From contig JAFGKR010000208.1 in NCBI GenBank assembly GCA_016928515.1, positions 1 to 40,872 of the forward strand: a stretch of 40,872 bases of DNA, in the 5' to 3' direction. Below are positions 7,549-38,000 of this stretch, in pieces. A program made the position numbers and the translations under genes. Origin of the DNA: Bacteroidota bacterium. GTDB taxonomy: Bacteria > Bacteroidota > Ignavibacteria > SZUA-365. Below the pieces are notes generated by a model. It was given only the letters and a program-made list of their open reading frames with translations. It searched no databases and was not told the DNA's origin. How positions within the stretch are numbered: the stretch's first letter is position 1; each line of letters opens with the position of its first letter.

Positions 7549-10362
7549 TCACTCCTGTGCGGCAACAGTGTCCGGAACCGCAGCGGGAGCCTCGCCTCGT
7601 TGCTTCAGCATTTCGTACAGACGAATCTGATCCTGCAGACCGGGATCCTGCGGATAATATGCGCGCAACTGCTCGAGCAGATCGATGGCCTTCTGGTATT
7701 CTCCGCCGCGTTCGTAATATCGCATCAGGAAGAAATAGCCTGACCGTGCGGTGGCATCCACGGTGGGATCCGCGTCGGCAAGCTTCGGGAGAAACCAGGC
7801 TTCGAGATCCTTCGCCAGCTCCATATAGGTCGTTGTGTCGCCGGCCATCAGGTAGAAATTGGCGAGATCCGTGCGCAGAGAGTTGTCGAAACGATGGTAC
7901 TCGGAAGGTATGACCTCTTCCATTTTCTTCAGCAGTGCTGTGGCACGTTCGGAATCGCCACGCTCCTCTGCGATATACTGCGAGAGTCCCATGTACAGCG
8001 CCCGGAAACTGAAGATCATCTTTGTGCTCGCTTCATCAAGATTGATTTCCGGATTGTTCAGTTCGCGGAACATGAAACCGAAAGCACGGTTGCTGTCAGG
8101 TTCCTGCCGCAGATTCATCAAATGCTTATAAGTGGATTCGATGTTCATGGCCTCGTAGTAACGCCCGCCTTGCCGCGGCAGTGATATCGGGGTCACCCGG
8201 GATGCGAGTCCCTCGACAATCATATGATCGTCGAGACCGATGCGGTCTTCCTGCGCGGTACTCAGCGCAAAGTAGATCGGCCGTGTGTTGAAATTCTTGG
8301 TCAGGATGTCCAGGATCAGCAGATCCTGAATGCGGATGCCCTTGTTGCCCGCAGGATCCGTGTACGACGCCTGCACGGTGAAGTCGAGGGAAGACGGCAG
8401 CGTGGCGCGGTTCTGCAGTTCGGGTACATCGGCAAGAGATGCCAGGTTGAATGACTCCCGATCGATGGGGATGCTGATCTTGCGTGGCTCCCACAGGATG
8501 GGCCGCAGGTCCTCGAGCTCCGCATCACTGTATGAAAGCGGGACTGTCTTTGCGCCATAGGGCTGTTCATTTTTCAGCTGCTTGCTGTACCATGGGGTAT
8601 TGAGCAGACTGAGGTTGACGACGCGAACGTCGCGGCGGATACCCGCGGAGTACTGCAGATACCACACCGGGAAGGTGTCGTTGTCGCCTCCCGTGAACAG
8701 GATCGCATCCTGATCGCAGCTTTGCAGCAGATTGTAGGCGTAATCGAACGCAACATAGTTGTAATGACGGTCGTGGGTGCGGTAATTCTGTGAGAGCATG
8801 TTGATCGGTGCAAGGACGAAGAGCAGCCCGGCAAGCGCCAGACCGACGGCTTCGTTCCTGCCGGTTTTGGTCAGGAGCCACTCGACAATCCCGTAGACAC
8901 CGAGGCCGGCCCAGAGCGCAAAGACATAAAACGAACCGACAAAAAAGTAGTCTCGCTCACGGACCTGGGGTTCCGCCATATTGAAATAGACCACCAATCC
9001 GAATCCCATGATGAAGAACAGCGCAGCCATCGCCGTGCCCGTCCGATAATCCTTGCGGAAGTGGTAGAACATGCCGATGAGTCCGAGCAGCAAGGGAATG
9101 GCATAATAGCGATTGGGATACCCCGGACTTTCCGACCAGTCTCCCACCTCCTGGAAATGGGCGACCGGTGCCCCCTGGATATCACCGGCACGTCCGACGA
9201 AGTTCCAGAGGAAATAGCGAAGATATATCTCCCCCATCTGGAACTTGAGAAAATATTCCATGTCCGATGAATACTTGGCGTACGAATTCAGATGTATCTG
9301 ATCCGGACTCCAGCGACGCGGAAAATACTGCACGTTCCTATCCATCTGCACGGTACGCGTGCGCTCGTCGAAGTTCGGTCCCTTCAGCAGCGGATACGTT
9401 CCGTACTGATCGCGGTTCAGATAGCTGTACAGACCTTCGAGTGTCGTCGGCGCGTTCTCATTCAGCGCCGGTTGCTGATTCGCGCGGATGGGGACGATGG
9501 CGTACGTGCTGTATCCGAGTGTGACAAGCAGAATCGCAAGTGATACCATGCGAAAATGCGGATGCAGATCCTTTTTTGCCACCACGGCGATCAATGCGGC
9601 GAGGACGAGGACGATCACATACCGCCCAACGTCACCGCTCAGCGTCTGCGGGATGTACTTCACAATACCCGGATAGATGACGGCGAAACCCAGGACCATG
9701 AGCAGCAACGCGATACTGAAACTCTTGAGTGTCATATCCTCGCGATGACGGTCACGGAAATAGATCAGGAAAAACACGAAGAAGATGGCGAGCAGTGACA
9801 AAAGATGTACACCAATGCTCAATCCGATGAGATACGCGATGAGGAGAAGAGAGCGTTCGGAATCGAACACACCGATATGGAAATACCACTCGATGGCAAT
9901 CCACACGACGATGGAGACGAAGAACATCCCGATGCCGTACACTTCCGCCTCGGAGGCGTTGAACCAGAACGTATCACTGAAGGAGAGAATGAGGGCACCG
10001 CTCGCGCTGGCCAGGATCATGCTCAGTGCAGCGATCGGGGACTGCGGATCGCCCTTCCACTGCCGCAGCAGACGCATGGATACGAGATAGACGAACAGAA
10101 CGGTCAGCGAACTCGAGAAGGTGGACATCAGATTCACGCGGAATCCCAGATCATCCGAGAAAGGGATCAGAGAAAGAACACGCCCGACCAGCTGGAAGAA
10201 CGGAGCGCCCGGGGGATGGGGCACCCCCATGGTGACCGCGGATGTGATGAATTCCCCCGCATCCCAGAACGAAATCGTGGGAGCGACCGTCATGAGGAAA
10301 ACGATCGTGGAAAAGAGAAAGACGGCTACAGCAGAAATACGATGCCAGAGATTGAAATTCAT
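7549..10362 (-). CDS. DUF2723 membrane protein (TMEM260-like GT-C glycosyltransferase) with C-terminal TPR-like helices
   Basis: [55 protein letters not shown] motifs; many TMs followed by a large soluble C-terminal region. Confidence 0.88.
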
Positions 10363-14088: not shown

Positions 14089-15211
14089 CTATGTCGGCAT
14101 GGAAGCCACGGCGTTGCCGAACTGCAGCAGGTAGGCCTGGGCAAACGCTTCGAGATCTCCGTCCATGACGGACTGCACGTTGCTTGTTTCCGCCCCGGTG
14201 CGGTGATCCTTGACCATGTTGTAGGGATGAAACACATACGAGCGGATCTGACTTCCCCACTCGATTTTCTTCTTGCTGTCTTCGATCGACGCCAGGCGGT
14301 TTGCCTCTTTCTCACGCTCGAGCTGATACAGACGCGATTGCAGCAACTTCATCGCAGTGGCACGGTTCTGATGCTGCGAGCGTTCCTGCTGGCAGGCGAC
14401 CACGATACCGGTCGGCACATGTGTGATGCGGACCGCCGTCTCGACCTTGTTGACATTCTGTCCACCCTTCCCACCGCTGCGGAAGGTGTCGACTTTCAGA
14501 TCCGAGGAATTGATTTCGATCTCGATTTCATCGTCGATCTCCGGATATACGAAAACGGAGGCGAAGCTGGTATGCCTCCGTTTTGCCGAGTCGAAAGGCG
14601 ATATGCGCACGAGACGGTGCACGCCGATTTCCGATTTGAGATAGCCGTACGCGTATGGTCCTTTCACTTCGAACGTCGCGCTCTTGATCCCCGCTCCCTC
14701 GCCTTCGAGTTCGTCGACGAGCAGCACCTCATAGCCACGGCGTTCGCAGTAGCGCAGGTACATGCGGTAGAGCATTTCCGCCCAGTCCTGCGATTCGGTG
14801 CCGCCGGCACCGGAGTGAATGGTGACGATGGCGTTGCGCCGGTCATCCTCACCCGAGAGCATGTTCTTGAACTCGAGTTCCCCGAGCAGGCGTTCGAGAT
14901 CCTTGAGTTCAGAAGCGATTTCCTCCCCGAGGGCTTCGTCCTTTGACTCCTCGGCGAGCTCCACGAGCGCATTGAAGTCCCCGGTTTTCCGATCCACTTC
15001 GTCCCAGAGTTCCACCCACTCCTTGCGCACGGAGATTTCCTGCATCACCTTCTGCGCCTGTATGTTGTCATCCCAGAAACCCGGGGCGTGGGTTTTCCCC
15101 TCGTAATCCGCTATCTCCGATTTCTTGGTGTCGATGTCAAAGATACCCCCGGAGATCGTGGACGCGTTTACGGATTTCGTTTCCCTTGCTTTGGAATTCT
15201 TCGAACATCAT
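14089..15211 (-). CDS. prfB: Peptide chain release factor 2, with programmed +1 frameshift
   Basis: First segment MMFEEF...LRGYL ends at CTT-TGA-C (15142-15136). The +1 frame continues DIDTKK...PGFWDD into the ORF-track 14089-15048 frame. SPF and GGQ motifs present; about 373 aa joined. Confidence 0.96.
15136..15151 (-). promoter_or_regulatory. prfB autoregulatory frameshift cassette
   Basis: CGGGGG-TAT-CTT-TGA-C on the minus strand: internal SD-like run 3 nt before the slippery CTT-T. Confidence 0.93.
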
Positions 15212-16462: not shown

Positions 16463-16505
16463 ACGGAAAAACCCTTACATCATATTAATGTAAGGGTTTT
16501 TCCGT
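16463..16505 (-). terminator. Perfect 18-bp hairpin, probable terminator of the lipoprotein-LysM operon
   Basis: ACGGAAAAACCCTTACAT-7 nt loop-ATGTAAGGGTTTTTCCGT. Confidence 0.75.
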
Positions 16506-16584: not shown

Positions 16585-17379
16585 TTATTTGTTCACGTTC
16601 TCCGGAGATACTCCGGTGTCGGTTGTGCCGCCCATTTCCGCTTCGCGTTTCTGGCGATAGTAACGGCGGGCTGCACTTTCCTCTTCCGGCGTCAACGGCG
16701 CCGGTGCGGGGATCTTCAGAACCTGACCCGGATAAATCAGATCCGGATTCTTGATCTGCTCGCGATTCTTCTGCCAGATTTTTGGCCACTTGAATGCGTC
16801 GCCGTAGATGTCCGGCTTTTTCGCGATGTTCCACAGGCAGTCGCGGTCACGCGACCAGGTACCGACGACGTAGGTCTTCTCGGCACGGCTCAGCGTTTCG
16901 CGCAGCGTGCGGATATTCTCACCCATGCGCTGGATGCGATCATAGAACGCCGGTAGCAGGCTGATTTTGTTTCCGGAAAGATTCTTGAATTCCTCCTCGG
17001 CCTCGTCGACCTCAGCCTTGCGGGCGAGCAGGTCCATCGGGGACAGCCGAAGCAGTTCGGCGATCTTGTTCTCGTTGCGCTTCAGGCGCGCTTCGAACGC
17101 ATCGACATCCTGACGGGTGGCGCCGACGAGCGCATACAGCTCATCGATGCATTTCTCGTAATCATCCTGTTTCTGCTTGAGAACCTTGTTCTTCTCTTCG
17201 AGCTGTTTGTCCAGCGCATCCTGCTGCCGCTTCAATTCGGTGGAGCGCTTCTCGAGCTGCTGGATCTTTTGTACTGCCTGCTCCTCGGTCATTTCCTCCT
17301 GCTGGGCGAACGCGGCACTGCCCGCCATCAGGAACAATCCGAGTGCGATGGTCAGCACGGAAATGCGATTCCATTTCAT
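16585..17379 (-). CDS. Secreted coiled-coil protein with C-terminal LysM peptidoglycan-binding domain
   Basis: GAGGAG SD before ATG 17379. Sec signal ending AFA|Q, long heptad region, LysM TYVV...DCLWNIAKKPDIYGDAFKWPKIW..N...IKNPDLIYPGQVLKIP. Confidence 0.9.
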   Translation of the reverse strand: MKWNRISVLTIALGLFLMAGSAAFAQQEEMTEEQAVQKIQQLEKRSTELKRQQDALDKQLEEKNKVLKQKQDDYEKCIDELYALVGATRQDVDAFEARLKRNENKIAELLRLSPMDLLARKAEVDEAEEEFKNLSGNKISLLPAFYDRIQRMGENIRTLRETLSRAEKTYVVGTWSRDRDCLWNIAKKPDIYGDAFKWPKIWQKNREQIKNPDLIYPGQVLKIPAPAPLTPEEESAARRYYRQKREAEMGGTTDTGVSPENVNK

Positions 17380-17429
17380 AATATTTCTCCTCGCTTGTAC
17401 GATTGTTTCTAGAGACGTGACGGTGGACA

Positions 17430-17711
17430 CTAGTTGCCCTTCCAGTTGGCGAGACGCTGTTTGACCAGCTCCTTGTCCTTGGCGCACTGTTCCAGCTTGG
17501 CTTCCTGGGCTGAGATCTGACGGTCCAGGGTACCGATCTGGGACTGCTTCGTTTGGATCGCTGACTCGAGGGCCGTGATTTCACGCTCCAGCTCAGCAAT
17601 GCGTGCAAGCTGCTCGGGTGTTGCATACGAGGTGCAGCCCGAAAGGACAGCTCCGGCACCCATGATAGCCGCAGCACAAACGAGCACCACAGATTTGCGG
17701 AGTTTTTTCAT
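17430..17711 (-). CDS. Small coiled-coil lipoprotein (93 aa)
   Basis: AAGGAG SD; basic N-region, hydrophobic core, lipobox LSG|C26; the mature 68 aa are almost entirely heptad repeat. Confidence 0.88.
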   Translation of the reverse strand: MKKLRKSVVLVCAAAIMGAGAVLSGCTSYATPEQLARIAELEREITALESAIQTKQSQIGTLDRQISAQEAKLEQCAKDKELVKQRLANWKGN

Positions 17712-17779
17712 AATAGTCTCCTTTGCGGTGATGAGTTAAAGTAACAGGTTAGACTCAGGAATTATCTGCATATATGTCA

Positions 17780-17808
17780 ATAATAACAAGAATACTACAC
17801 GTTGTCAA
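17780..17808 (-). promoter_or_regulatory. Near-consensus sigma70 promoter of the lipoprotein-LysM operon
   Basis: TTGACA (17808-17803), 17-nt spacer, TATTAT (17785-17780), in an AT-rich intergenic region. Confidence 0.75.
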
Positions 17809-24277: not shown

Positions 24278-27200
24278 TCAACGCAAAACGGTGATTCGCT
24301 GCAGCATGTGATCACTTTCACTGCGCAGGAGAACGAAATAGCTCCCCACATCCAGGGCTCCTGCATCGAAAATATATTCGTGCCTGCCTGCCGGGAGAAC
24401 GGCATGCAGCAGCACGGTGACTTCCCTCCCCTGCATGTCGGTGACGGAGAGCCGTACCGGGCGTTGCCGGTCCAGTGTGAATGCGAGCGTTGCCCTGCTG
24501 TGGACCGGATTCGGTACGGACGGAGCGAGTGTTATCCCTCCGTCACTGCGGATCAGTCGTCTCCCGTCCGCAAGGCAGTATCCCTCGAGCAAAAAGCGCC
24601 CGGCCTGCATTTCACGCACACGCACGGCAGGATGATCAAAGATGAATGCATCCGGTGTCAGTGCGGTGGCCGTGTCGTTCCCGACGAGAACCAGCAGATC
24701 GACGAACAACAACTCCCGGCCCTCCGCAAGCATCCCGCTGTCCGCGAGCACATGAACTGTTCCCGATGCCTGGTCATAGTCCCAGATCACACGCATTTGC
24801 GCGGAGGCCGATCCGACAGTCGCTGTCCCGAGCGGATACAGCATGCTCGGATTGAAACGCAGCTCTCCGGACCAACGGCGGATACCGAACCCGGACAGAT
24901 CCCGTGACAGCCGCAACGGTACGCGAATAGTGTCGTCCACCGTGCCACGCAATACCGCCGTACTCAGATCGAGGGCCTGCAGATCGCCATCGCCATGAAA
25001 GGAGACCGGGAGGGGCGAACGTACCACACAGGGTGCCGTCGCGTCCAGAAACAGGCTGTCGGTGATTGCGCCCTGGCGGTCAGGCGTGAAGGTCAGCCGC
25101 ACACGCAGACTGTCTCCCGGCGCTATCGCTGCCGGCAGTGGTGGAAGTGTTCCGATGACACGCAGGCGTGTGCCGCCGGGTACCACCTGTTCAACATGAA
25201 CCGCATACTGCGCGCGATTGAAGCCGCTGAATTCCGCCACGGGACTTTCATCACCGACCGGCATGCCCCCGAGAAAGACGGGATCGGGAAATTCGAGTCC
25301 ACCATCTCGCACGAATGCCCGAATCATGGAAGTGAAATCATATGTCTGCCCGTCCACGTGCACACGCACCGAGAGCGTAGCGGTCACCTCTCCCCGGTCT
25401 CCGGGTGCCGGCGTGAAATGCACCGGCAGCGTAACAGTCTCGCTCCAGAGCATCGGGAACGGCAGCGGCGCGTGATCGACGATGAAACGGTCGGCGAAGG
25501 GTCCGAGAAGAGAAATGCTTTCGATCAGAAGATCGGGGTCGGCATACGCCTGCATCGTCACGATGCCGCTGCGGGTTTCGCAGAACGGCAGTTCGCCAAG
25601 ATCGAGATCTGTCTGCGTGAAGAGTCGGACCGCCGTCCCCCGCACGATGATGCGCATGCTGTCGAGACAGGGTTCGAACACCATGTACAGCGTATCCTCG
25701 AAGGGGCCTTCGACCGTCGGACGGAAACTGATGCGGTACGTTTCCGGATGGCGCGGAAGCATGTCCTTCGGAACAGTGGGTCGAAGCAGGGAGTACTCCG
25801 GCGGGGCATGCAGCGCAACGAGTCGAAGGTGGGAGGTACCACTTTGCGAAAGCTGGCCGGTTATGAACACTTCATCACCGACCACCACCGGCCCTGTACC
25901 GCCCTGTTGGTCCGGCGGCGTCACCTGTGTTACGCGAACCCCACGCAGCGGCAGTTCGAGTACCGGCTGTTTCGGCACAGTCGTACTGACAAAGAACGAT
26001 GCCACGATGGGACCGTCGGTTTCAGCTGCCGGTGCAAAACGAACACGGAAACGGCGCTGCTGCCCTCCCTGAAGGGTCTCCACGCCGGTGACCGGATCAA
26101 GCATCGAAAAGGCCGCCGCGCCTGCGCCGCTGATCGTGCTCGACTGCAGTTCGATTGCCGAGTTGCCGGAATTCACAAGGCTCGCGAAAAGAACCTGATC
26201 CTGGCACTGCGCAAGAGAGTCGAAGCGCAGGTCCGGCTCTGCAAAAATGAGATCGCCGTCCACCCCCTGTCCTTCGAGAGCGATGCATATGGTGTCGGAA
26301 CACGGCTGATCGAAATACAGGCAGAGTGCGCCGAACACGCTCCCCACCGAATCGGGAAGGAAGCGGACGTCGATGTCCAGTACATCTCCGGTGTCGAGAG
26401 AAACCGGTTGTGCGAGTTCCGCGAAGAACGGTGGAGCGGGATCGATACCGACGGCAGCCAGATGTAATCCGTGCATGTCACGGTTCCGCACACGCAGGGT
26501 TCGTGTCTGACTCGTGCCGGCGACGACATTCGCGAAGAGCAGCGATGAAGGGGTCATGTCGAGATATGGCTCTGCAGATCGTCCGGTGAGCACGATATCA
26601 GTGATACGCTCACAGTGCCCGATGCGACTGCGCAGCGTCAGCACCGTGCTGTGCATACCGGGAGAGGAGGGCGCGTACAGAAGACGGAGCGCACCCATCC
26701 CTTGTGCGGGTACCTCCACGGGCAGACCGGTCAGAAGCGTGAATGCGGGATCGCCGATCAATACATCGGATATCGTGACCGGTATATCCGCGGTATTGAC
26801 GAGATCCCGGCTGAAAATGATTTCCGTCTTGCAGACGGGAATGTTCCCCGCGTCGATCGTATCGGGAAGCTGAAGCCCGCCGTCGTCTCTGAGCGCATGC
26901 AGCTGGACGACGGTCAGCGCGCCGCTGCTGCCGCGAAGCAACATCTCTCCACGTGTCTCCGTGCCTGCAGGCTTGCGGCTGCAGATGCGGAACAGGGCCG
27001 TGCCGCCCACATCGGTCGACGTGGCCGTATCCGGTGTCACAGAGAAAAATACGGGATTGTTGAGCACGGGCTCGATCGACTCGACTTCGCTGAGCATGTT
27101 TTTCACCAGCAGGGTGTCGCAGATCAGCGTATCGCAGAACAGATGCAGGAAAGACAGGGTATCCGCGTCGACGGCCAAAGCGCGGTCTTCGATCCGCATC

Positions 27201-30200
27201 CGCAGCGGGAAGCAGAGCGTATCCGGACACGGGGAAGACAGAACCACACACAGGTTTCCGGCCACCGTACCGGTATCCTTGAGTAGGCGGAAGCGAAATC
27301 CGGCCGGAACTATCGAATCCGGCGCGAGAGAGGCCGGCAGGGATGGGAGAGCGTCCATCTGCAACACCGAGGCAACGCCGGAGAGAAAGACGGTCTCGAC
27401 CTCCACTGCCAGTGTGTCGCTGTTCATCACGTAAACGACGATGTGTGACGTATCGGCTGTCGAGCGGATACCAAGATCCAGCGGATCCGGGAACACCGTC
27501 AACGCGGGATGAAAAACTCCCGCCGAAAACCGAAGGAGATACTGTACACTGCAGGGTTCGGTATTCACGCGCAGAACGATCGGCAGAACAGTATCGACCG
27601 GAACCGTCACCGATACATCGATCGGAAATTCTCCAGCCGGTGGCACCTCCGCAGCAACAGCGGCATGCCGCACAGACGTGAACGGCGCCCCCGCTTCGAG
27701 ACTGATGTCCGTTATCCGAAGAGGGGTGTCGTGGGGATTGCGGAAGACGAAGCGCCGGGTACCTTCCTCCCCGAGGCAGAGGGGGAGCGACGTCACCGTA
27801 TCACCGTCCAGCACCAGGGAACGCACATTCCGTCTCCCGATCAGACGAACCCGCGACTCCCCGAACACACTGGAATCGTCGTGGCTGAGCAGTAGGACCG
27901 CGCGACTGTCCTGGTTGGCGGGTGCGTCATAGAGCAGGACGAACTGCACCGCGGAATCCGGCGGCAAGGTCAGCGGCAGGCGGGGACGCAACAGCTGGAA
28001 ATGCGTCGGATGAAGACCGATCACTTCCGTGCGGCGCAGATGCAGTGGTTGCTGCCCGGCGTTGCGTACCTCTATGCTGTCGATGACCGGCGCTTCACAG
28101 ATCTGGTCGTCGAAACGCAGAGAATCGGGGATGAGGGCAAACGGCAATTCGGCGCTGAAGAGGAACACAGGCAGACGAAGCGTGTCAGGGCAGGGTGACG
28201 ACCAGGTGACATGCAGCCATGTCATGCTGCTGTCGGAACGCGGCGCCCGGTAGGCAACGACGACTTCGAGTTCGTCGCCGATGTCGCACTGCCGGGGGAA
28301 GCCGGTGGGTGAAAGTATCGTCAATCCATCGACCGGGGGATCGGTCCAGATCATCTCCACCGTCACATCATCATAGCCGCGATTCCGGAGAAACACACTC
28401 CTGCGCACCTCGATGTTCAACGGCACGGGCCCGATGACCAGCGCGGAATCGGGATCGGTTTGCAGAACGGCATCCTTCCCTCGACCGGTGCAGACGAAGT
28501 CGAGCGTATCGGGGCAGGGGCCGAGCACCAGTCGAAACAATGCCGCATGTGATATGGAATCCGCGCGAGTCGGTACGAAACGAACGGGGATCTTCAGCGT
28601 CCCGTCAGGTCCGATCCGCCTGGCAGTGTCGACGAGAACCGCAAAATCCGTCCTCCCCTCGGTCTGCAGCACTGTCGTTACCCGGCCGTCTGTATTTCCG
28701 GTATTGCGTAGCTCGACATATTCGATCCGGGCATCCCCGACGCAGACATCACCGAAAGCGATGTCGGGCGGAGCGATTTGCATGCGATTACTCTCGATGA
28801 ATCCCTCATAGGGGATCTGAATGAGCTCGGGGCAGTCCTCATGCCCCGCGAGCAGATGGATGCTCCCGAGAATGGGACCATCGAGACTGCTGGTCAATGA
28901 TACGCGAAGGGAATCGACGGCCGTGACACTGTCCCCGAGCAGGTGGGAGAGCAGTGTGACCGTACCCCGTGACCCGAGATCATCGATCCCCAGGATGCGC
29001 GGTGCCCTGTTGCCGTAAGTGGAAACCGGTAACACGAAAACGGCGGTATCCTTTCGGCAGACGGTGGGAAAGACGATGCGCGCCGCGCCGGGACGCAGTT
29101 CGTTGATGACGCGCATTCCCTCCAACGAGACGGTCCATGGCGTATGATCCGGATCGTTCGAGACGATATGCATCCGGCTGCCCACGGGGACCGGTCCGAA
29201 ATACGCGGCGTCCGGTTCCCAGCGGACGGTTACGAAACGGGTTTCTCCCGGGGGGATGACCAGAGGCCAGGTCGCCCCGCGCAATTCGAAATCCGCATTA
29301 CTGAACGTCACATCGCCCCGCTGAATCGTCAGATTTCCCGATCCCTTGTTCACAATGGAAAAAGAGCGATCCTTCCAGTCACCGCAGGCGAGCGTATCGA
29401 AAGAGAGAACGGATGACGTCGCAGAGATGTCGGGACGCTGTGTTCCGTTCCACTTATAGATCCAACCCTCCGAGACGCTGGGATAGCCCGACGTGCGTTG
29501 AATGCCGCCGACTGCCCAGCCCACGGCTTCGTTGAGAAAGATCATCTTGTTGAAGGGCTGATACGTCTTGTTGCCGAACACATTCGGATAGTAGCGATGC
29601 CAGCTCGATCCACCGTCAAAGGTGTAGGCAATTTCATTGTACGCACTGGCCACCCATCCCTTGAGGGAATCGAAGAAAAAGAGAGCTCGATGCGCACCGG
29701 GCGTTGAATTGAAAGTCGGTTGTGAAGGACTCGGAAACCAATCGACACCTCCATTCGTGGTGGTGATCAGATGGTTGCCGGTTCCCTGGTTGTACCCGTA
29801 GAGGAAGCCGCGGGTGTCGTCGACGAAGCTGATCTTCATATGGCTGCCGTACATCTCGATGGAGCCATTGAAGGAAAGATTGATCCACTTCTGATTCGAA
29901 GGATTGTAGCGGAAGAAAGCATTGTCCCCGCCCGCCACGATCCAGACCGATCCTGTGTACTTGACATCCGTCAACGCGGCGGTGACCGGGAGAGTGTAGT
30001 TGGTCCATGATACTCCCCCGTCCAGCGTGTGATGGACACGCCCGGGGCCCTCACCAACGATCATCCCTTCACGAACATCCTTGAAGGTCACTGCATAGCG
30101 GGTACCGTAGAGAATGGGATTCTGCGGAGAGACGCTGAACCAGGTGGAACCGTAATCCACCGTTTTATAGACAAGGCTGCGATAGTCGTCGCGCCACGAG

Positions 30201-30526
30201 ACAAAGGCGATGCCGGTATTCGGTACGGCGAAGACGTCCTGCGCCCACGATGTGAGCGCGATGTTCAGCGCGGGAGTAAAAGCCGACTGCGGCACCGGCT
30301 GCCATGTCGGATTCCCCGTCCGTTTCACGAGAACGCCCGTCTGTCCGAGCAGCACGTCCACATCCCCCACCGCGTACCCGTTCCCCGTATCGGCCATGGA
30401 AATTCCCATCAATCCGCGTACCGGAACGGCAATCGGTTGCTCCTTCCACGTTCCCACCGGCTGGGCCGGCAACACCGCGGACAGCAATGCGAGCAGGACA
30501 CAGATGAACAGAAGTTGTCGATGCAA
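24278..30526 (-). CDS. Giant secreted protein: YCF48/BNR-type beta-propeller, tandem choice-of-anchor D (ASH/Hydin Ig-like) repeats, cohesin-like domain, T9SS type A CTD
   Basis: Signal-like HRQLLFICVLLALLSAVLPA|Q after TTG 30526 (or TTG 30541). Asp-box repeats TxDGGxSW; about a dozen F-x-x-x-C...N.G...V.F.P repeats; C-terminal PSVPNP...DMQGREV...G.YFVLL...QRITVLR. The ORF-track start at 30730 is probably too long. Confidence 0.8.
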   Translation of the reverse strand: MHRQLLFICVLLALLSAVLPAQPVGTWKEQPIAVPVRGLMGISMADTGNGYAVGDVDVLLGQTGVLVKRTGNPTWQPVPQSAFTPALNIALTSWAQDVFAVPNTGIAFVSWRDDYRSLVYKTVDYGSTWFSVSPQNPILYGTRYAVTFKDVREGMIVGEGPGRVHHTLDGGVSWTNYTLPVTAALTDVKYTGSVWIVAGGDNAFFRYNPSNQKWINLSFNGSIEMYGSHMKISFVDDTRGFLYGYNQGTGNHLITTTNGGVDWFPSPSQPTFNSTPGAHRALFFFDSLKGWVASAYNEIAYTFDGGSSWHRYYPNVFGNKTYQPFNKMIFLNEAVGWAVGGIQRTSGYPSVSEGWIYKWNGTQRPDISATSSVLSFDTLACGDWKDRSFSIVNKGSGNLTIQRGDVTFSNADFELRGATWPLVIPPGETRFVTVRWEPDAAYFGPVPVGSRMHIVSNDPDHTPWTVSLEGMRVINELRPGAARIVFPTVCRKDTAVFVLPVSTYGNRAPRILGIDDLGSRGTVTLLSHLLGDSVTAVDSLRVSLTSSLDGPILGSIHLLAGHEDCPELIQIPYEGFIESNRMQIAPPDIAFGDVCVGDARIEYVELRNTGNTDGRVTTVLQTEGRTDFAVLVDTARRIGPDGTLKIPVRFVPTRADSISHAALFRLVLGPCPDTLDFVCTGRGKDAVLQTDPDSALVIGPVPLNIEVRRSVFLRNRGYDDVTVEMIWTDPPVDGLTILSPTGFPRQCDIGDELEVVVAYRAPRSDSSMTWLHVTWSSPCPDTLRLPVFLFSAELPFALIPDSLRFDDQICEAPVIDSIEVRNAGQQPLHLRRTEVIGLHPTHFQLLRPRLPLTLPPDSAVQFVLLYDAPANQDSRAVLLLSHDDSSVFGESRVRLIGRRNVRSLVLDGDTVTSLPLCLGEEGTRRFVFRNPHDTPLRITDISLEAGAPFTSVRHAAVAAEVPPAGEFPIDVSVTVPVDTVLPIVLRVNTEPCSVQYLLRFSAGVFHPALTVFPDPLDLGIRSTADTSHIVVYVMNSDTLAVEVETVFLSGVASVLQMDALPSLPASLAPDSIVPAGFRFRLLKDTGTVAGNLCVVLSSPCPDTLCFPLRMRIEDRALAVDADTLSFLHLFCDTLICDTLLVKNMLSEVESIEPVLNNPVFFSVTPDTATSTDVGGTALFRICSRKPAGTETRGEMLLRGSSGALTVVQLHALRDDGGLQLPDTIDAGNIPVCKTEIIFSRDLVNTADIPVTISDVLIGDPAFTLLTGLPVEVPAQGMGALRLLYAPSSPGMHSTVLTLRSRIGHCERITDIVLTGRSAEPYLDMTPSSLLFANVVAGTSQTRTLRVRNRDMHGLHLAAVGIDPAPPFFAELAQPVSLDTGDVLDIDVRFLPDSVGSVFGALCLYFDQPCSDTICIALEGQGVDGDLIFAEPDLRFDSLAQCQDQVLFASLVNSGNSAIELQSSTISGAGAAAFSMLDPVTGVETLQGGQQRRFRVRFAPAAETDGPIVASFFVSTTVPKQPVLELPLRGVRVTQVTPPDQQGGTGPVVVGDEVFITGQLSQSGTSHLRLVALHAPPEYSLLRPTVPKDMLPRHPETYRISFRPTVEGPFEDTLYMVFEPCLDSMRIIVRGTAVRLFTQTDLDLGELPFCETRSGIVTMQAYADPDLLIESISLLGPFADRFIVDHAPLPFPMLWSETVTLPVHFTPAPGDRGEVTATLSVRVHVDGQTYDFTSMIRAFVRDGGLEFPDPVFLGGMPVGDESPVAEFSGFNRAQYAVHVEQVVPGGTRLRVIGTLPPLPAAIAPGDSLRVRLTFTPDRQGAITDSLFLDATAPCVVRSPLPVSFHGDGDLQALDLSTAVLRGTVDDTIRVPLRLSRDLSGFGIRRWSGELRFNPSMLYPLGTATVGSASAQMRVIWDYDQASGTVHVLADSGMLAEGRELLFVDLLVLVGNDTATALTPDAFIFDHPAVRVREMQAGRFLLEGYCLADGRRLIRSDGGITLAPSVPNPVHSRATLAFTLDRQRPVRLSVTDMQGREVTVLLHAVLPAGRHEYIFDAGALDVGSYFVLLRSESDHMLQRITVLR

Positions 30527-30991
30527 GGAGCGATCACGCAAGTGAATGAGAATGCCGGGAATCCGGACATTTCCTGCCCGGAAACACGAATGGAAATATT
30601 CGTTATGATACCGTAAAGACGCGTGAAAGACAAGAGTGGCTCTTTTCCGAAATCCACCCGGTACATCACCTCCGCCCTGCCCCACCAGTAGCCGTCGGCG
30701 GTGGACGAATTCGAAGCATCCGCGTACCACATGCGCTCAAGCAGTACGTGTCCTGAAAGCGGTCCTTCCGGAAGGAACTTCACCTCGGCGATGACCAAGC
30801 GTGCCCACGACGCGCGAATCCCCTTTCGGGATCACGCTCATGTGCGCGTTGCAAATATGCTGCAGCATCCCGCGAAGCACCATTTCCTTCACTAGCCGCC
30901 ATCAGAGCTGAAGATACGGTGCGAGGAGATTACTCCACTGCGCGATTCCTCCCCGCAACTGCATGAATATGCAGGTTCTGCAAGTCCGGTC

Positions 30992-33823
30992 TTACTCCCG
31001 CGGCGGCGGGGGCGGAAGCGGACGGACGTACGCGGCGGGGAGACGCAGCAGGGCATCCACTTCGGGGAGCTCACCGGGAGCGAAGGACTGCACGATCATC
31101 CGCAGAAGGGCCTCGGTGTTCACCTTGGCGAAATAGCCGCGGCCGGGACGAAGAACGCCGCCCTCCGGTTCGATGTACCCCAGCTCCGGATGATAATCGT
31201 AGATCGCGATGAGCGCTCCGGCGGGATCGGTCTGCACGGCGGCAAGTGGCACGGGACCGCTCGGTGCACCGATCAGGTTCCAGCCGCCGAATTCGTCCTC
31301 CATCATGACCTCCATCGCGGTGGTGTAGCTCCCGCTGACGACGATGGAATCCTCCCGTGAGAACTTGATCCAGTATCCCTTTCCGTATTCCAGTTCCTCC
31401 GCCTCGACATATCCCTTCTCAGGTACGTATTCATAGGCCTTTCCCTCCGCCGCAGGGAACAGATCCTCCACGCCGGAAGGAGACAACGGTAGCGGCAGCG
31501 AAATCAGGTTCCATCCTTGCGCGAAGCGGATGACGATATCGCCCTTCGCACGTTCGCTGATGAAATCCCAGTCCGTCTGATTGCCGGACAGACCACTGAC
31601 AGTGCGCGATGCCGGCGTAAAACTGAAGTACGGACTCGCCGGTGCGACGCTGTAGTCCCCCGGAACGAGCCCCGTTACGACATACTCACCGTTTTCGTCG
31701 GTAAAGGCCTCCGTCGACATCGTTCCGACGACGACCATGCGCACACCCTCCGCGGGGTTACCGGCCGTGCTCTTCACCTTTCCGGAGATTTCGTACGAGA
31801 CGGCCGGAACGACGTTGCAGACGACGTTGACCAGGATACCCGCATTCGCCGCGTTGCCGCCGATTGTGACGTTGTCACTGTATGTCCCGATCGATAACTG
31901 TGTATCCGTGATCTCGACGCGCACGGAGTCTTCATTGGATGTGCCGGATCCGGGTGTCAGATCGTACCACTGTGCGGAGGTTTTGGATGCAGTCCAGGAA
32001 AGAGTCTTTCCCCCCGTATTTCGCAGATGAATGTATTGCGCCTGAGGAGCCGGACCGTTCTGGTACACGGTGAACACGAGCTGACGCGGACGCACGTCAA
32101 GCACTGGCACCGGATCTTCGATGCTGAACGGCGCGCTCGCATCCTCGAGCATGATGGTAGACGGCGGCCGAATACGTACAACCGCATCATTGCTGACCGG
32201 GGGACCGGTGACCGTCCACTGGAAACCGCCGGCGTTCGCCGCAACAGACGGCGCGAGCACCTCAGAGAATGTTTTCCCTCCGTCACGTGACAGCTCGACG
32301 CGCAGATTCACGAGACCGGTGGCATTCCACTTGACGGTTTCGCTGTCGCCGATGTCCCAGCGCTCTCCGCCGGTGGGATGCAGCAGTGTGAGAGACGGAA
32401 GTGACGGAAGCGAGGATGCGTCGGCAAAATATGCTTGTGAGGATGTCCGGAAGCTGCCCGTGCCGTGCAGGCCGCTGCCCGAGCGGTCGAGGTCGTCGCC
32501 CTGGAAGCGGTAGACCGCGACGAGCCCGGCGGTCGGCCCTTCGAATTCCATCCGGTGATGATCTGCGATCTGGTCGTCGGTGCGTGCCGTGTTCCAGATG
32601 CGCACCTCGTCGATGGCACCGCTGTACCCGTAGGCCGTGGTGCCGGTGGACTGAACATCCGCTGAGCCAATCAGGAGTTCATCCTTGTTGCCACTGCCTG
32701 TCGTCGTGTAGGTCTGGGTCTGATCCGGAATACCATTGATGAAAATCGTGGCGATGGAGCCGTTACCGCTTCGTTCGAAGCGCGCGGCGACATGCGTCCA
32801 TGTGTTCAGGGACAGGGTGGCTTTACTTTCCAGGGGAAGCTGCCAGTTGCCGGTCGGCAGAAAGCGAACCCGCCCGTTGCTCTTGTTCAACCCGAGCCAG
32901 TAATTCCAGCGGTTCGCCGAATGCGAACCCTTGGTGAGGAAGGTCTGGAACTGTGCATGTCCGCCCGTGGCCGGTCGCACCCAACACTCCAGGGTAAAAT
33001 TCTGTGTCAACGTGAGTGCCGGATCATTCGGGATGGTGACATGGTCACCGCGATCGGGACCGTTTGTCACGATGAGGCTGATCCGCTGGTAATGCGGAGG
33101 ATCCGGTGTCTGTGCGTACGATACACTCCCGACGTTGCTGCCGTTGTGTCCTCCGACGGCGGCCAGTGCGTTGCCGTTCAGGCGCCAGGCCCCCTGCAGG
33201 AAGCGGCCGTGCAACCCGCCCGCCATCGCCCAGGGGATGCGGTACAGCAGACCGGCGGCGTTCGAGAAATCCACCACGGACCGCCAGATGCGCACTTCGT
33301 CGATTCCACCGGTCCAGTAATCCGCAGGACCGGCATTATCACGATCGGCCCCGATGCGGAGATCGAAATATCCGTAGCCGAGGTAGCTCTGTCCGGTTTT
33401 GATCTGCCGGTCGAGCGCGCCGTTGATGTAAAACTTCATTTCATTGCCGCTGGCGTCGAAGCTCACGCCGACATGCGTCCATGTATTCAGCGGAATCGTA
33501 CTGCTGCTCTCCTCGTGATACGCCGGATTCGGATAGAAACGAAGGCGGCGCTGTGGGGAAAGTCCGAACCAGTATGAGGACACGTTCCGGTCGTTTCCCA
33601 CAATGCACATGAGCTGTCCCGACTGCGTGGGTCGCACCCAGGCGTCGATGCTGATGGCGGCTGCCCGTGCGATATCGACGTTGAATGCGTCGTCGTAGGC
33701 AATGGACAGATAAGACGATCCGCCGAGCTGAAGCGATGCGTTTTCCGATTCGTACGGCTGTGCAGCGGTCGTGGATGCTGCCAGCAGACACAGGATGATC
33801 AGGAGGGAGCGTGTGCGTGTCAT
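30992..33823 (-). CDS. Secreted modular protein: 2x LamG-like jellyroll, Ig-like, BACON-like, carboxypeptidase-regulatory-like, GWNL module; no T9SS CTD
   Basis: Signal peptide. Two (D/C)xWVRP...LNTWTHV...(Y/F)ING...IG...G.IDEVRIW units; P.GGE.W..G Ig-like unit; GWNLISLP/GKGYW/GWNLIG/GRGYF; ends RPLPPPPPRE. Confidence 0.8.
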   Translation of the reverse strand: MTRTRSLLIILCLLAASTTAAQPYESENASLQLGGSSYLSIAYDDAFNVDIARAAAISIDAWVRPTQSGQLMCIVGNDRNVSSYWFGLSPQRRLRFYPNPAYHEESSSTIPLNTWTHVGVSFDASGNEMKFYINGALDRQIKTGQSYLGYGYFDLRIGADRDNAGPADYWTGGIDEVRIWRSVVDFSNAAGLLYRIPWAMAGGLHGRFLQGAWRLNGNALAAVGGHNGSNVGSVSYAQTPDPPHYQRISLIVTNGPDRGDHVTIPNDPALTLTQNFTLECWVRPATGGHAQFQTFLTKGSHSANRWNYWLGLNKSNGRVRFLPTGNWQLPLESKATLSLNTWTHVAARFERSGNGSIATIFINGIPDQTQTYTTTGSGNKDELLIGSADVQSTGTTAYGYSGAIDEVRIWNTARTDDQIADHHRMEFEGPTAGLVAVYRFQGDDLDRSGSGLHGTGSFRTSSQAYFADASSLPSLPSLTLLHPTGGERWDIGDSETVKWNATGLVNLRVELSRDGGKTFSEVLAPSVAANAGGFQWTVTGPPVSNDAVVRIRPPSTIMLEDASAPFSIEDPVPVLDVRPRQLVFTVYQNGPAPQAQYIHLRNTGGKTLSWTASKTSAQWYDLTPGSGTSNEDSVRVEITDTQLSIGTYSDNVTIGGNAANAGILVNVVCNVVPAVSYEISGKVKSTAGNPAEGVRMVVVGTMSTEAFTDENGEYVVTGLVPGDYSVAPASPYFSFTPASRTVSGLSGNQTDWDFISERAKGDIVIRFAQGWNLISLPLPLSPSGVEDLFPAAEGKAYEYVPEKGYVEAEELEYGKGYWIKFSREDSIVVSGSYTTAMEVMMEDEFGGWNLIGAPSGPVPLAAVQTDPAGALIAIYDYHPELGYIEPEGGVLRPGRGYFAKVNTEALLRMIVQSFAPGELPEVDALLRLPAAYVRPLPPPPPRE

Positions 33824-35010: not shown

Positions 35011-38000
35011 CTACTTGACTATCGTAAGTGTGCGCGAAACGACACCGGTCGCCGTCTCGAGACGGTATGTGTACATCCCGGCGGGAACCGCCGCGCCCGT
35101 GTCATCCATTCCGTCCCAGGTCACATACTTGCTGCCCTGAGACTGGCTACCACGCACCAACGCGCGGACCTGGCGGCCGAGCATATCGTATATCGTCAGG
35201 TGAACGGCACCCTCCTCTGACAGTGTGTACGGAATGACAGTGGACGACGTTGTCTGGAAGGGATTCGGATAATTGCTTCCCAGAACGACCTTCGCATCGG
35301 CAGGACGCACACGGGTATTCAGCTTCAGGACGCTGGTCCCGGTGACGTCGAGGATGAGATGGTCCCCTGCGGAGCCGTCGAACGTATGCAGGAGACGACC
35401 GTCTTCGTCGCGCACCTCGATCAGGATGCGATCGGATGAGACCGGCGTCGAGAGGACGCAGCGTCCCTGCCCGCCGACATGGACCGTCGTTTCTCCGGGA
35501 AAGACGAACTGCGTTCCCTCCGCGGTGCGCACATCGAGGATGTCCGCAGGCGGAGCGGCCGGCAGTGCCAGCACGTTGCGCAGTTCATCGGTCGCCCGGT
35601 CGCCGGCGACGTAGAGCCTTCGAGTGTGACCCTCGGCGTTCTCCAGCGTCAGCAGACCAGCCAGATCCATACCGGCAACCGCCTTGCTGTATGCCGTCGC
35701 ACCAGCACCGCTTCCGGTGAAACCGCTGGTGCTGATGCGGAGATTTGTTCCCGCATCGACACGTACCCAGTAGCCCTTGCCGGGTTCCATCTGCGTCGGC
35801 ACGATGTATCCCTGACCGGGATCCCACCCGAAGATGGACTTGAGTCCGCCGGCGGGATTCTGCTGGATGGACGCGACGGGTACCGGCTTGAGAAGGGCGC
35901 CGACCATGTTCCACCCGTAGCCGTACGGCTCACCGATGCCATTGAGCTCGGTCCATTCGAAGGTGGATTTCGAGAGTCCGATCAGTACCTCCTCCAGGGG
36001 ACCGGCTTTGATCCAGTAACCACGGCCGAGTACCATATCGCTTGCGGCGTCATATTGTCCCGCGTCGGTGTCGAACAGGTACATTTTCATATCCGGCTCC
36101 TGTGCCAGGGCGGCGAAGTCAGGATTCTGCAGCTCGAGCGGCGTGGAAACCATTTCCCAGTCTCCACTGGTACGGAAGACGAAGCGCTCGGGATCGCCCG
36201 TACCATCGGGGATGGGAGGATCGATCGGCACCCGTGTGGTGTCATCGACCTGGTCGTCGTCCTCGTTGTCGTTGATGACGACAATTTCGCGATCACGTTG
36301 TGGATCGTCCGGGTCACCGCAAAGTCGGAAGACCAGAATTGAGTCGCGCTGCACGATGTCGGTGATCTGTGTCGGTTTCATCGCACCGGTCGGCATGCGC
36401 TCCATCAGCTTGATGTTGAAGGGATTGTAGTACGGACGGGGATCGCCGGTCTGGCGGTCGCGCACTTTGAGTTTCAGGTCCACGCACGGCCAGTTCTTTG
36501 TATCCACGTCCTCGGTCGTGATGACGACTTCGTTTTCCTTGGTAGGTTCGGGACAGATCGGCTCCTTCACCTCAATGGTGAAGATATACCGTCCGTCGTT
36601 CGCGAAGGTGTAACTCGATGCCGATCGCATGTCGATGCTGCCGGGTTCACCCTGTATTTTCAAGGTAAAACTTGCGCTTGGAGAGGCCGGAAGCGCACCC
36701 CAGGTCATGGTCACCGGATTGGTCGGCCCGGTCTGCACCTGTCCCTGGAAGGTATGGGACGCCTTGATCGCGCGGATGTCGGTCAAGCTGCCCTGCGACC
36801 CGGGAATATTCAACCAGCGGATGTCGAACGCCGTCGGGGGCGGTGTCGGGGGCAGATCGGTCTGTCCCGCTTCGAGTCCGTCTCCGGCTCCTTCCTGCAT
36901 GCCGTACTCGAGTGTGATCTCATTCTGGCGTGCATTGCGGAAGAGAATCGCATGTTGCCATTTGCTCATCGGCTCGGGGACGCACGGCTTCTGCCGGTAA
37001 TACGCGATGAGCTTCTTGCTCTGCCACATCGTGACGGTCAGCGGATTAGTTGTCGTCGTCGTGTCACCGCCCCAGCCCACGAATTCAAATCCCGACGGCG
37101 CCGTGGCGGTTGCGGTCAGGGTCGAACCGACGGGGCCGGACTGACGATCGTCGAACGGACCGCCCGGTCCTTCCGGATTGATGACGACCAGTTCGGCCAG
37201 AGCGCTGCTGATGGGCTCGATGATCGGGAACACTTCGTACTCGCGTGCTTCGGTGTTCGGACCGATGTTCACCGCGGCCGGATTATCCCGCAGATTTCCG
37301 AAATCTCCTCCGAATCCCTGGAAGGAATAGCCCGGCGGCACCTGGTAATACATGTTGAACAGTAACGGGGTCGACTTGTCCACGCCCTTCGTGAACAGGT
37401 CGAACTTGGGATGCGGTCGCATGATGACCTGTCCCGGGAACGGTTGGACGAGGTGGAACTTCACGCAGTTCAGGCAGAGGTCCGGCAATTTGAAGCCGGG
37501 TTCGATCTGCTCACGCATGACTTCGATTTCGTATTCCCCGAAGGAGAAAAAGCCACCGTAGCGATTCACCAGATCGTTCCATGCACCGCCGGACACCTGC
37601 GATTCCACCTTGATGATGTACTCACCATCTGAGGTCAGGCGCAATGTATGCACGCCACCCAGAACGGTGGAGCTGGTATGCGTGGAGGTACCGGCACGCT
37701 GCGCGCGGAATTTCGGCTCGAAATCGGAGCCGTCCTTGACGCGCAGTTTCAGCACCAGTCGTTCACCGAACACATTCGGTGTGACGTTGATGACGGTCAC
37801 ACGGAAGTAATCCCACTGTGGTACGTTGAAGGAGAATTCTCCGACCAGCGGCTGCAGAGGGATCGCACCTTCAATGACATACGGATCCATTCCCGGACCG
37901 GAGGATGGCAGCAACTTCGGATTCGCGAGCGTCGCCGGTTCATTGGCGTCCACGCAGTACACGGTATCCACCGGGGTCGACGGACGCGTGGTAATGGATG

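Follow-up and report, generated by a model that had tools for sequence, protein, structure and literature searches.

Do a small lipoprotein and a secreted LysM protein, encoded side by side in a bacterium of the class Ignavibacteria (Bacteroidota), make up a single envelope protein? The question is raised by a 40,872-nt stretch of DNA (contig JAFGKR010000208.1 of assembly GCA_016928515.1, positions 1 to 40,872; hereafter the window), which contains the lipoprotein gene P0001 (17430..17711; 93 amino acids, aa) and, next to it, the coiled-coil/LysM gene P0002 (16585..17379, stop codon included; 264 aa). A previous reading of the letters of the window, which we call the sequence-only reading, had described a two-gene unit with its own promoter and terminator, and had proposed that the two products are joined through aligned Cys residues into a tether from the outer membrane to peptidoglycan. 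The two-gene unit was borne out, and we add that both genes lie on the minus strand, as do all sites and frames of the window for which coordinates are given below. Gene linkage, modelled geometry, and the coupled gain and loss of Cys residues give good in-silico support to a disulfide-clamped heterodimer. As the explanation of the pair as a whole, we favour, with some reserve, a two-chain rod that is clamped by a disulfide and runs from membrane to wall.

The lipoprotein is predicted to comprise a 25-residue signal, a lipobox (LSGC) with Cys26 as its +1 Cys (codon 17634..17636; predicted lipidation), and a single long helix with the C-terminus WKGN, so that the mature chain has 68 residues. 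The coiled-coil segment, delimited by the core pattern and by the interface of the complex model described below (interface residues 27-92), comprises residues 32-90 (17442..17618). It includes Cys76 (codon 17484..17486), which is located inside the most conserved motif, KLxQCAKDK. Both Cys26 and Cys76 are invariant in the alignment of 64 lipoprotein homologues. Lys is the last residue in 53 of 133 homologues, the window copy ending with WKGN. In several families (f9, f11, f15, f21, f24, and f32), a Pro-rich stretch and a tail rich in Lys come after the coil.

The LysM protein likewise begins with a predicted signal of 25 residues, which ends with AFA before Q26 and is accompanied by no lipobox Cys. 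Its long helix, residues 32-85 in the model by AlphaFold2 (AF2), corresponds to 17125..17286 and is the part that pairs with the lipoprotein helix in the complex model (interface residues 29-85). Cys77 (codon 17149..17151) belongs to this helix, and the Cys of the DCLW motif, Cys181 (codon 16837-16839), to the LysM domain. The signals, the Cys residues, and the WKGN end are thus all as the sequence-only reading had claimed.

The pairing of the two genes in relatives was examined in 139 loci (145 loci minus six duplicates, L120-L125), in which hidden Markov models of both alignments were searched against the open reading frames (ORFs) of all six frames. Two matches had been excluded before the count, one covering LysM partially within a frame of 1058 aa (L118) and one being a contig-end fragment (L131). 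The linkage holds in relatives, as 137 of the 142 LysM-family ORFs are directly preceded by a lipoprotein gene in the same orientation. All five exceptions can be explained. One is at a contig end (L010), and another is at the edge of its stretch and paired in the overlapping locus (L111, L114). The remaining three (L030, L113, and L116) are the second LysM paralogue of family f8; in L030 and L113/L116, the lipoprotein gene has a LysM-family gene on either side. In family f19, we detected two complete lipoprotein-LysM pairs, arranged in tandem or a few kb apart (L111/L114, L110/L115, and L112/L117), and the LysM copies of this family carry up to 10 Cys residues.

Among 41 genomes, namely the own genome of the window and 40 relatives, 40 contain the LysM protein and 39 the lipoprotein. 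The sources of the close homologues are named Bacteroidota, Ignavibacteria, Ignavibacteriales, or Melioribacteraceae. A profile built from 88 LysM-protein homologues (A1; match threshold, E up to 1e-10) matched 281 of the 301 genomes of the class, and 248 of the 264 of good quality. When 201 genomes sampled from the phylum were searched, the same profile matched 45 of 49 genomes from the class and five of 152 from other classes, all five belonging to family f32. The homologues carry automatic names such as 'LysM peptidoglycan-binding domain-containing protein', 'nucleoid-associated protein YgaU', and 'hypothetical protein', and the small protein is sometimes termed 'Lpp'; several of the Joint Genome Institute (JGI) names of lipoprotein homologues read 'outer membrane murein-binding lipoprotein Lpp'. 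A protein atlas yielded only Bacteroidota clusters named 'hypothetical protein'.

How the two chains may fit together was addressed with a complex model of the mature lipoprotein (residues 27-93) and LysM-protein residues 27-250, both supplied as alignments and in 1:1 stoichiometry only. The ipSAE value was 0.74 in all three runs, while the best of three unrelated-partner controls reached 0.12. The former mark is reached by 58 of 80 solved complexes and two of 110 mismatched pairs, counts that are only rough when custom alignments are used. The runs had at least 98% of the contacts in common, and the predicted local distance difference test (pLDDT) of the partner was at least 91. In the modelled interface, the two helices run parallel and in register as a coiled coil, residue n of the LysM protein facing residue n-1 of the lipoprotein from 39-38 to 84-83. 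The expected error is 0.4 Å for each of the contacts 42-41, 49-48, 56-55, 67-66, and 77-76 (LysM protein-lipoprotein). The Cys residues, which had been read as occupying matching core positions in the two chains, face each other in the model, Cys77 against Cys76 in one core layer. In addition, the end of the lipoprotein (residues 82-92) contacts the loop 136-146 of the LysM protein. Profile searches against the PDB detected no similar complex, and the matches of the lipoprotein profile with E values of up to 0.1 did not include Lpp; the hetero model is therefore not the memory of a solved homologue. The lipoprotein-LysM heterodimer very probably forms.

The composition of the modelled core points in the same direction. 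Residues 37-76 of the lipoprotein and 38-77 of the LysM protein can be aligned without a gap over 40 positions with the reciprocal pairs K55/L56 and L62/K63, just as had been noticed. The 14 layers of the window pair are, in the order lipoprotein-LysM protein, I38-I39, L41-L42, I45-S46, L48-L49, I52-Q53, K55-L56, I59-L60, L62-K63, I66-L67, Q69-K70, L73-Y74, C76-C77, K80-L81, and V83-L84. We counted the layers in which polar residues face each other in one representative of each of 28 families (392 layers in total). There were 12 such layers in the hetero pair in register, 70 in the homo pair of the LysM protein, and approximately 100 in the homo pair of the lipoprotein, of which the polar core residues are mostly Lys, Arg, or Gln. 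Exchanging the partners among families raised the count to a mean of 16.7 (standard deviation 1.9), and 142 of 10000 permutations reached 12 or fewer. When the register was shifted, the count was 16 to 54, the minimum being the 12 at shift 0. Both the complex model and this minimum support a register beyond chance. Depending on the family, 2 to 6 of the 14 lipoprotein core positions are non-hydrophobic (two of the counts include alignment gaps), a composition that, as judged from the sequences, argues against a homo-oligomer. The reciprocal K/L pairs appear from the same comparison to belong to a conserved negative design that disfavours homo pairing. The model thus presents what characterizes the class of parallel heterodimeric coiled coils, in-register complementary pairing and Cys residues in the same layer, in silico only.

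The strongest evidence for the disulfide-clamped heterodimer is the record of Cys residues in 133 non-redundant gene pairs from 28 families. The co-conservation of Cys76 and Cys77 is complete, with both residues present in 105 pairs, both absent in 28, and no discordant pair. Three further sites show the same coupling, and where a lineage is devoid of the 76/77 pair, one of these is often occupied in both chains. Cys55 of the lipoprotein and Cys56 of the LysM protein are both present in five pairs, which are all of those from f32 (5/5), a lineage outside the class, and no pair is discordant; this site is exactly three heptads upstream of 76/77 and in the same n-1/n register. At the membrane-proximal end, Cys27/28 of the lipoprotein and Cys32 of the LysM protein (scored as 27-29/31-33) co-occur in 7/7 pairs of f21, again with no discordance. 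Finally, Cys86 or approximately Cys87 of the lipoprotein and Cys141 of the LysM protein are both present in 10 pairs (eight of f19 and two of f8), and the single discordant row is L117, in which the lipoprotein ORF stops early. All four sites are within the modelled interface (contacts 56-55, 141-83, and 141-86 besides that of 76/77; residues 29-36 and 27-31 are also placed there), and at least one matched Cys pair was found in 118 of the 133 gene pairs.

We then considered the Cys changes on a tree of the concatenated proteins, from which the trait columns were masked, counting contrasts on supported branches. Cys76 and Cys77 each change six times, and 4/4 independent contrasts agree (p = 0.125; a sign test with fewer than six contrasts is unable to reach p 0.05). 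The agreement at the other three sites is 1/1, 1/1, and 1/2, the remaining contrast showing no difference, while no contrast agrees in the control comparison of Cys77 with Cys181. Pooling gives 7/7 (sign-test p = 0.016), a value that spans four traits and is indicative only. Taken with the geometry, the Cys record makes an interchain disulfide between the two chains probable.

An intramolecular disulfide between Cys77 and Cys181, named in the sequence-only reading among the findings that would refute it, was also considered and is ruled out. In so far as the analysis covered them, with a complex model of the 1:1 hetero pair only, none of those refuting findings was made. Both residues are present in 93 pairs; Cys181 occurs alone in 28, that is, in all of the pairs lacking Cys77, and is absent from 12 pairs that keep Cys77. 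Family f12 (L026 and L078-L085), which has lost the 76/77 pair, possesses extra Cys residues at approximately 118 and 165 in the bundle of the LysM protein and none in the lipoprotein. These extra residues may form an intramolecular disulfide in place of the interchain one.

Beyond the paired helix, the AF2 model of the LysM protein (mean pLDDT 85.8) contains three helices at 89-110, 114-136, and 143-166, followed by the LysM domain and a basic helix at 231-250. The three helices form an antiparallel bundle in both the AF2 and the complex models (residues 89-166; 16882..17115), and the lipoprotein helix would dock with its C-terminal end on the loop 136-146 (NKISLLP) of this bundle. In VIA-align, the only counterparts of residues 88-167 were generic antiparallel three-helix bundles (best Z 10.1, the caution line for helical bundles being approximately 13). 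Residues L109, L112, S113, L117, R120, E123, K138, S140, L141, P143, F145, D147, and R148 of the bundle are nearly invariant. Two motifs, RLSPMDLLARKAEVD (residues 110-124; 17010-17052) and ISLLPAFYDR (residues 139-150; 16930-16965), are nearly invariant class-wide.

The LysM domain (residues 168-225; 16705..16878) is of the Kbp/YgaU/LipL71 subtype. It exceeds the gathering score of the Pfam family LysM (PF01476; 25.1 bits vs. 20.9, residues 180-224) and shows the beta-alpha-alpha-beta fold in the AF2 model (strand 168-171, helices 182-187 and 195-204, and strand 220-223). VIA aligned it to the LysM domain of Kbp with a Z of 8.4 and a root-mean-square deviation of 1.5 Å over 57 residues at 44% identity. 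As a whole, the protein gave only partial LysM matches in a Foldseek search against the PDB (E of at least 0.04), and no enzymatic or LytM domain was detected in Pfam and NCBIfam scans. By analogy with its family, we infer that the LysM domain of the pair binds peptidoglycan.

Altogether, we propose that the two genes encode two halves of one envelope protein. The lipoprotein would be a single helix held by lipidated Cys26 in a membrane, which we take to be the outer membrane. The LysM protein, after cleavage of its signal, would set its helix 32-85 alongside that of the lipoprotein, parallel and in register. The two cores would be complementary, Lys or Gln of one chain standing opposite a hydrophobic residue of the other, and the hetero pair would therefore be favoured over homo pairs. 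Within one core layer, Cys76 and Cys77 would be joined by a disulfide, which would render the link covalent and turn the wall-binding chain into a covalent extension of the anchor. As both N-termini would be at the membrane end, the secreted chain could have no anchor in the opposite membrane. The lipoprotein would dock with its C-terminal end on the loop 136-146, and this end would be capped by the three-helix bundle, which would carry the LysM domain at the membrane-distal part for non-covalent binding to peptidoglycan. The resulting rod of approximately 55 helical residues (approximately 8 nm, close to Lpp) would tie the membrane to the wall, as a functional analogue of Lpp made of unrelated parts. 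The oxidation of the Cys residues, the binding of peptidoglycan, the outer-membrane anchor, and the load-bearing role are inferred parts of this proposal. The structural reading is backed by three independent kinds of in-silico evidence, and the physiological role is plausible; for the pair being a tether of the outer membrane to peptidoglycan, we regard the chances as evenly balanced.

Braun's lipoprotein Lpp of Enterobacteria, like the lipoprotein of the window, is a small lipobox lipoprotein made almost entirely of one coiled-coil helix of similar length, and its role as a rod resembles the one proposed here. Lpp is a homotrimer joined covalently to peptidoglycan via its C-terminal Lys, whereas the window chain ends in N and would delegate wall binding to a second, LysM-bearing chain that is putatively disulfide-linked. 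There was no match to the Lpp family PF04728 in the own genome (the E. coli positive control matched), and the score against PRK15396 was 17.7 bits vs. a cut-off of 108. By this analogy, the pair would work like Lpp without being a member of its family. To our knowledge, rods of the Lpp type are not known outside some Gammaproteobacteria. Salmonella LppB, a redox-active paralogue of Lpp, is described in the available text of its report as a coiled-coil tether lipoprotein that forms intermolecular disulfides through a Cys, and mixed oligomers with a second coiled-coil protein (10.1101/2025.11.13.688167; PMC12681736). LppB is homologous to Lpp, still has a terminal Lys for the wall, and bears its Cys, which is self-pairing, at the C-terminus. 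In the window pair, in contrast, the putative disulfide would lie within the core of the coil and connect two chains that are unrelated.

The likeness to LipL71/LruA of Leptospira is at the family level and restricted to the LysM domain (NF033163; 60.3 bits vs. a cut-off of 600, with residues 160-225 matching positions 396-460 of the 471-position profile). LipL71/LruA and BB0323 of Borrelia burgdorferi, both presumably lipoproteins, bear the anchor and the LysM domain on one chain, whereas these are split over two genes here. BB0323 resembles the pair by description, as the available text presents it as an envelope protein that is helical in its N-terminal part, has one LysM domain at the C-terminus, binds peptidoglycan, and is required for the outer membrane to be stable (PMC5462797). 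A survey distinguishes, in its available text, four main tether systems, namely Lpp, Pal, OmpA, and OmpM, and this text contains no occurrence of LysM or Ignavibacteria (10.1101/2021.05.31.446380). Pal, OmpA, and OmpM are likewise outer-membrane-anchored proteins that bind peptidoglycan non-covalently, using OmpA_C or SLH domains instead of LysM.

The partner in the phage spanins Rz/Rz1 is anchored in the inner membrane and the spanin disulfides are within homodimers; these are lysis proteins of phages, whereas the window pair is chromosomal and class-wide, and has both N-termini at the same end. As far as the available sources describe them, spanins likewise combine an outer-membrane lipoprotein with an adjacent coiled-coil partner and intermolecular disulfides. 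The scores against the spanin families were low (TIGR03495, LysB, 17.6 bits vs. 92.75; NF038368, LysC, 13.4 vs. 27). The neighbours are PhoH, release factor 2 (RF2), DusB, a glycosyltransferase, and WecB, and do not represent a phage lysis cassette.

Several observations weigh against the rod and its role as a tether. The profile A1 had no match in 20 of the 301 genomes of the class, including all seven of one genus (0/7), and part of family f25. No matched Cys pair was found in 15 of the 133 gene pairs (nine of f12, three of f25, one each of f26 and f28, and one row of f19), and the clamp is therefore dispensable in some lineages. Each of the sign tests is underpowered when taken alone (p = 0.125 for 76/77), and related genomes are not independent. 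The closest solved LysM domain in the PDB profile search (E = 6.3e-10) is that of Kbp, which we take to be a K+-binding protein located in the cytoplasm. In Borrelia, according to the available text, deletion of the LysM motif of BB0323 left the organisation of the outer membrane unaffected (PMC5462797). The remaining points bear on three alternatives, with which they are weighed here.

The alternative that survives best, although we consider it unlikely, accepts the heterodimer and denies that it is a load-bearing tether of the outer membrane. The pair would instead be a wall-anchored scaffold or regulator, for instance of an enzyme that hydrolyses peptidoglycan, of a factor in division, or of a protein in the outer membrane, or else a complex of the inner membrane; a third partner would then be bound by the conserved bundle. 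The near-invariant residues of the bundle exceed the needs of a spacer, and the modelled interface accounts for only 136-146 and, of the two motifs, only for ISLLPAFYDR, so that residues 110-124 may serve such a partner; nevertheless, the pair has no conserved third gene, and is bounded by its own promoter and terminator. LysM domains are frequent in regulators of division and of hydrolases, as the available sources indicate for NlpD and DipM, but the scans mentioned above gave no enzymatic or LytM domain. The own genome already holds 24 matches to OmpA_C (PF00691), several of them in frames of 500-800 aa, which make a sizeable set of envelope proteins that are candidates for binding the wall, and other tethers are therefore possible in it. 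No lipoprotein-sorting rule for the phylum could be applied, which leaves room for the inner membrane. On the other hand, the length of the rod and the strong expression signals suit a structural protein, and outside the family the Lol genes are not retained as neighbours (see below).

The second alternative, which we judge very unlikely, is that the heterodimer forms and the paired Cys residues are not a disulfide; they would be reduced residues of the core, or a joint site for a metal or ligand. Many members of the phylum live without oxygen, which favours this alternative, and so does the missing or patchy occurrence of recognised oxidases. The own genome (92.6% complete) had no match to VKOR, DsbB, or Thioredoxin_4; VKOR was detected in only 16 of 101 genomes of the class, including two of three in the genus of the window; and DsbB and DSBA were found in 0/5 and 3/5 sampled genomes, respectively. 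G071, a near-complete genome with the Cys pair, matched neither DsbB nor DSBA, and oxidation there would have to be spontaneous or to use an unrecognised route. VKOR was found in neither of the two f23 genomes sampled, a sample of which G071 is not shown to be a member. However, an ordinary small Cys in a core needs no joint gain and loss in both chains at four layers, two thiols are few for a metal site, and the close relatives G002 and G015 do carry single frames in which VKOR and DSBA are fused into one disulfide-forming enzyme (G002:C6:70515-71648 and G015:C1:529474-530601; 442 and 451 aa). The idea that the presence of an oxidase tracks the Cys pair was rejected, as VKOR is found in 0/8 genomes of f18, which keeps the pair, and in 0/6 of f12, which lost it.

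The last alternative, that no hetero complex exists and that the lipoprotein forms a homo-oligomer like the Lpp trimer and the LysM protein a homodimer, each with homo-disulfides and neighbours only by virtue of a shared compartment, is scarcely probable: coiled coils are readily paired by structure models, the complex model covers the 1:1 hetero pair only, and Lpp and LppB do form homo- and hetero-trimers with disulfide-linked dimers in the available text (10.1101/2025.11.13.688167), but homo-disulfides do not predict the coupled loss, gain, and relocation of Cys with one discordant row at four sites in 133 pairs, the self-facing polar layers (70, or approximately 100 and mostly Lys) far outnumber the 12 of the hetero pair, and unrelated partners scored no more than 0.12.

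Turning to the surroundings of the pair, the promoter TTGACA-17-TATTAT and the strong Shine-Dalgarno sequences noted in the sequence-only reading are present. The promoter-like site (17780..17808) has 11/12 matches and a TG before the second hexamer, and four promoter-like sites were found in the region vs. 0.9 expected from shuffles. Read off the sequence, the Shine-Dalgarno sequence AAGGAG (17718..17723) is 6 nt before the ATG of the lipoprotein gene, and GAGGAG (17387..17392) is 7 nt before that of the LysM gene, within the intergenic spacer of 50 nt. A terminator-like hairpin with a loop of 3 and a T-rich tail (16463..16505) lies between the stop codon of the LysM gene and a PhoH-like gene. 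The predicted terminator is thus present, with a stem computed at 20 pairs (G-T allowed) rather than the 18 given before. RNA-library contigs of a relative (approximately 87-90% identical) span both genes and the spacer in three runs (X17, 17078-17728; X19, 16627-17709; X21, 17037-17728), and X22 gave short pieces only; this is weak evidence, as libraries can contain DNA and a contig over two genes does not prove a single transcript.

Downstream of the pair are the PhoH-like gene, the gene of RF2, two LolC/E-like genes, and one LolD-like gene; upstream are DusB, a GT4 glycosyltransferase, WecB, and PrsW. In the sequence-only reading, lolC/E and lolD had been placed approximately 2.5 kb downstream, and two LolC/E-like genes and one LolD-like gene are indeed found, all scoring below the curated cut-offs of NCBIfam. 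The Lol linkage is ruled out as a conserved neighbourhood: G015, a genome from the same family, retains it, and four genomes from other families (G071, G075, G093, and G103) do not, their nearest LolC/E-like genes being 17 kb to approximately 1 Mb from the pair. The RF2 (prfB) frame (14089-15048) begins at position 47 of the 353-position profile, and the N-terminal part must therefore sit in another frame, presumably owing to the usual programmed +1 frameshift of prfB. The window also contains very long open frames at 24278-30730 (2150 aa) and 35011-40077 (1688 aa), and further long ones at 30992-33823 (943 aa) and 7549-10362 (937 aa).

Our literature searches, supplements aside, retrieved no paper on this family of lipoprotein/LysM pairs, and what we propose is a membrane-to-wall tether of a known kind that is built in a manner not described before. 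If the proposal is true, the pair would represent a fifth solution to tethering besides Lpp, Pal, OmpA, and OmpM. This rod, made of two chains that are not homologous to Lpp but similar to it in length, would occur in almost all genomes of a different class, one of environmental bacteria, and the rod design would have arisen more than once. We put forward only tentatively that the pair is the main strut between the outer membrane and the wall in the whole class, with thiol-disulfide chemistry rather than a peptide bond to peptidoglycan as the covalent step and a coupling that could be switched by the periplasmic redox state. In that case, the clamp would have moved between four layers of the coil during evolution and been dropped in some lineages. 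The shifting but always paired Cys residues are a natural record of which residues touch each other, and make the model unusually testable. A covalent step by disulfide could let the redox state tune the coupling of the envelope and the release of vesicles.

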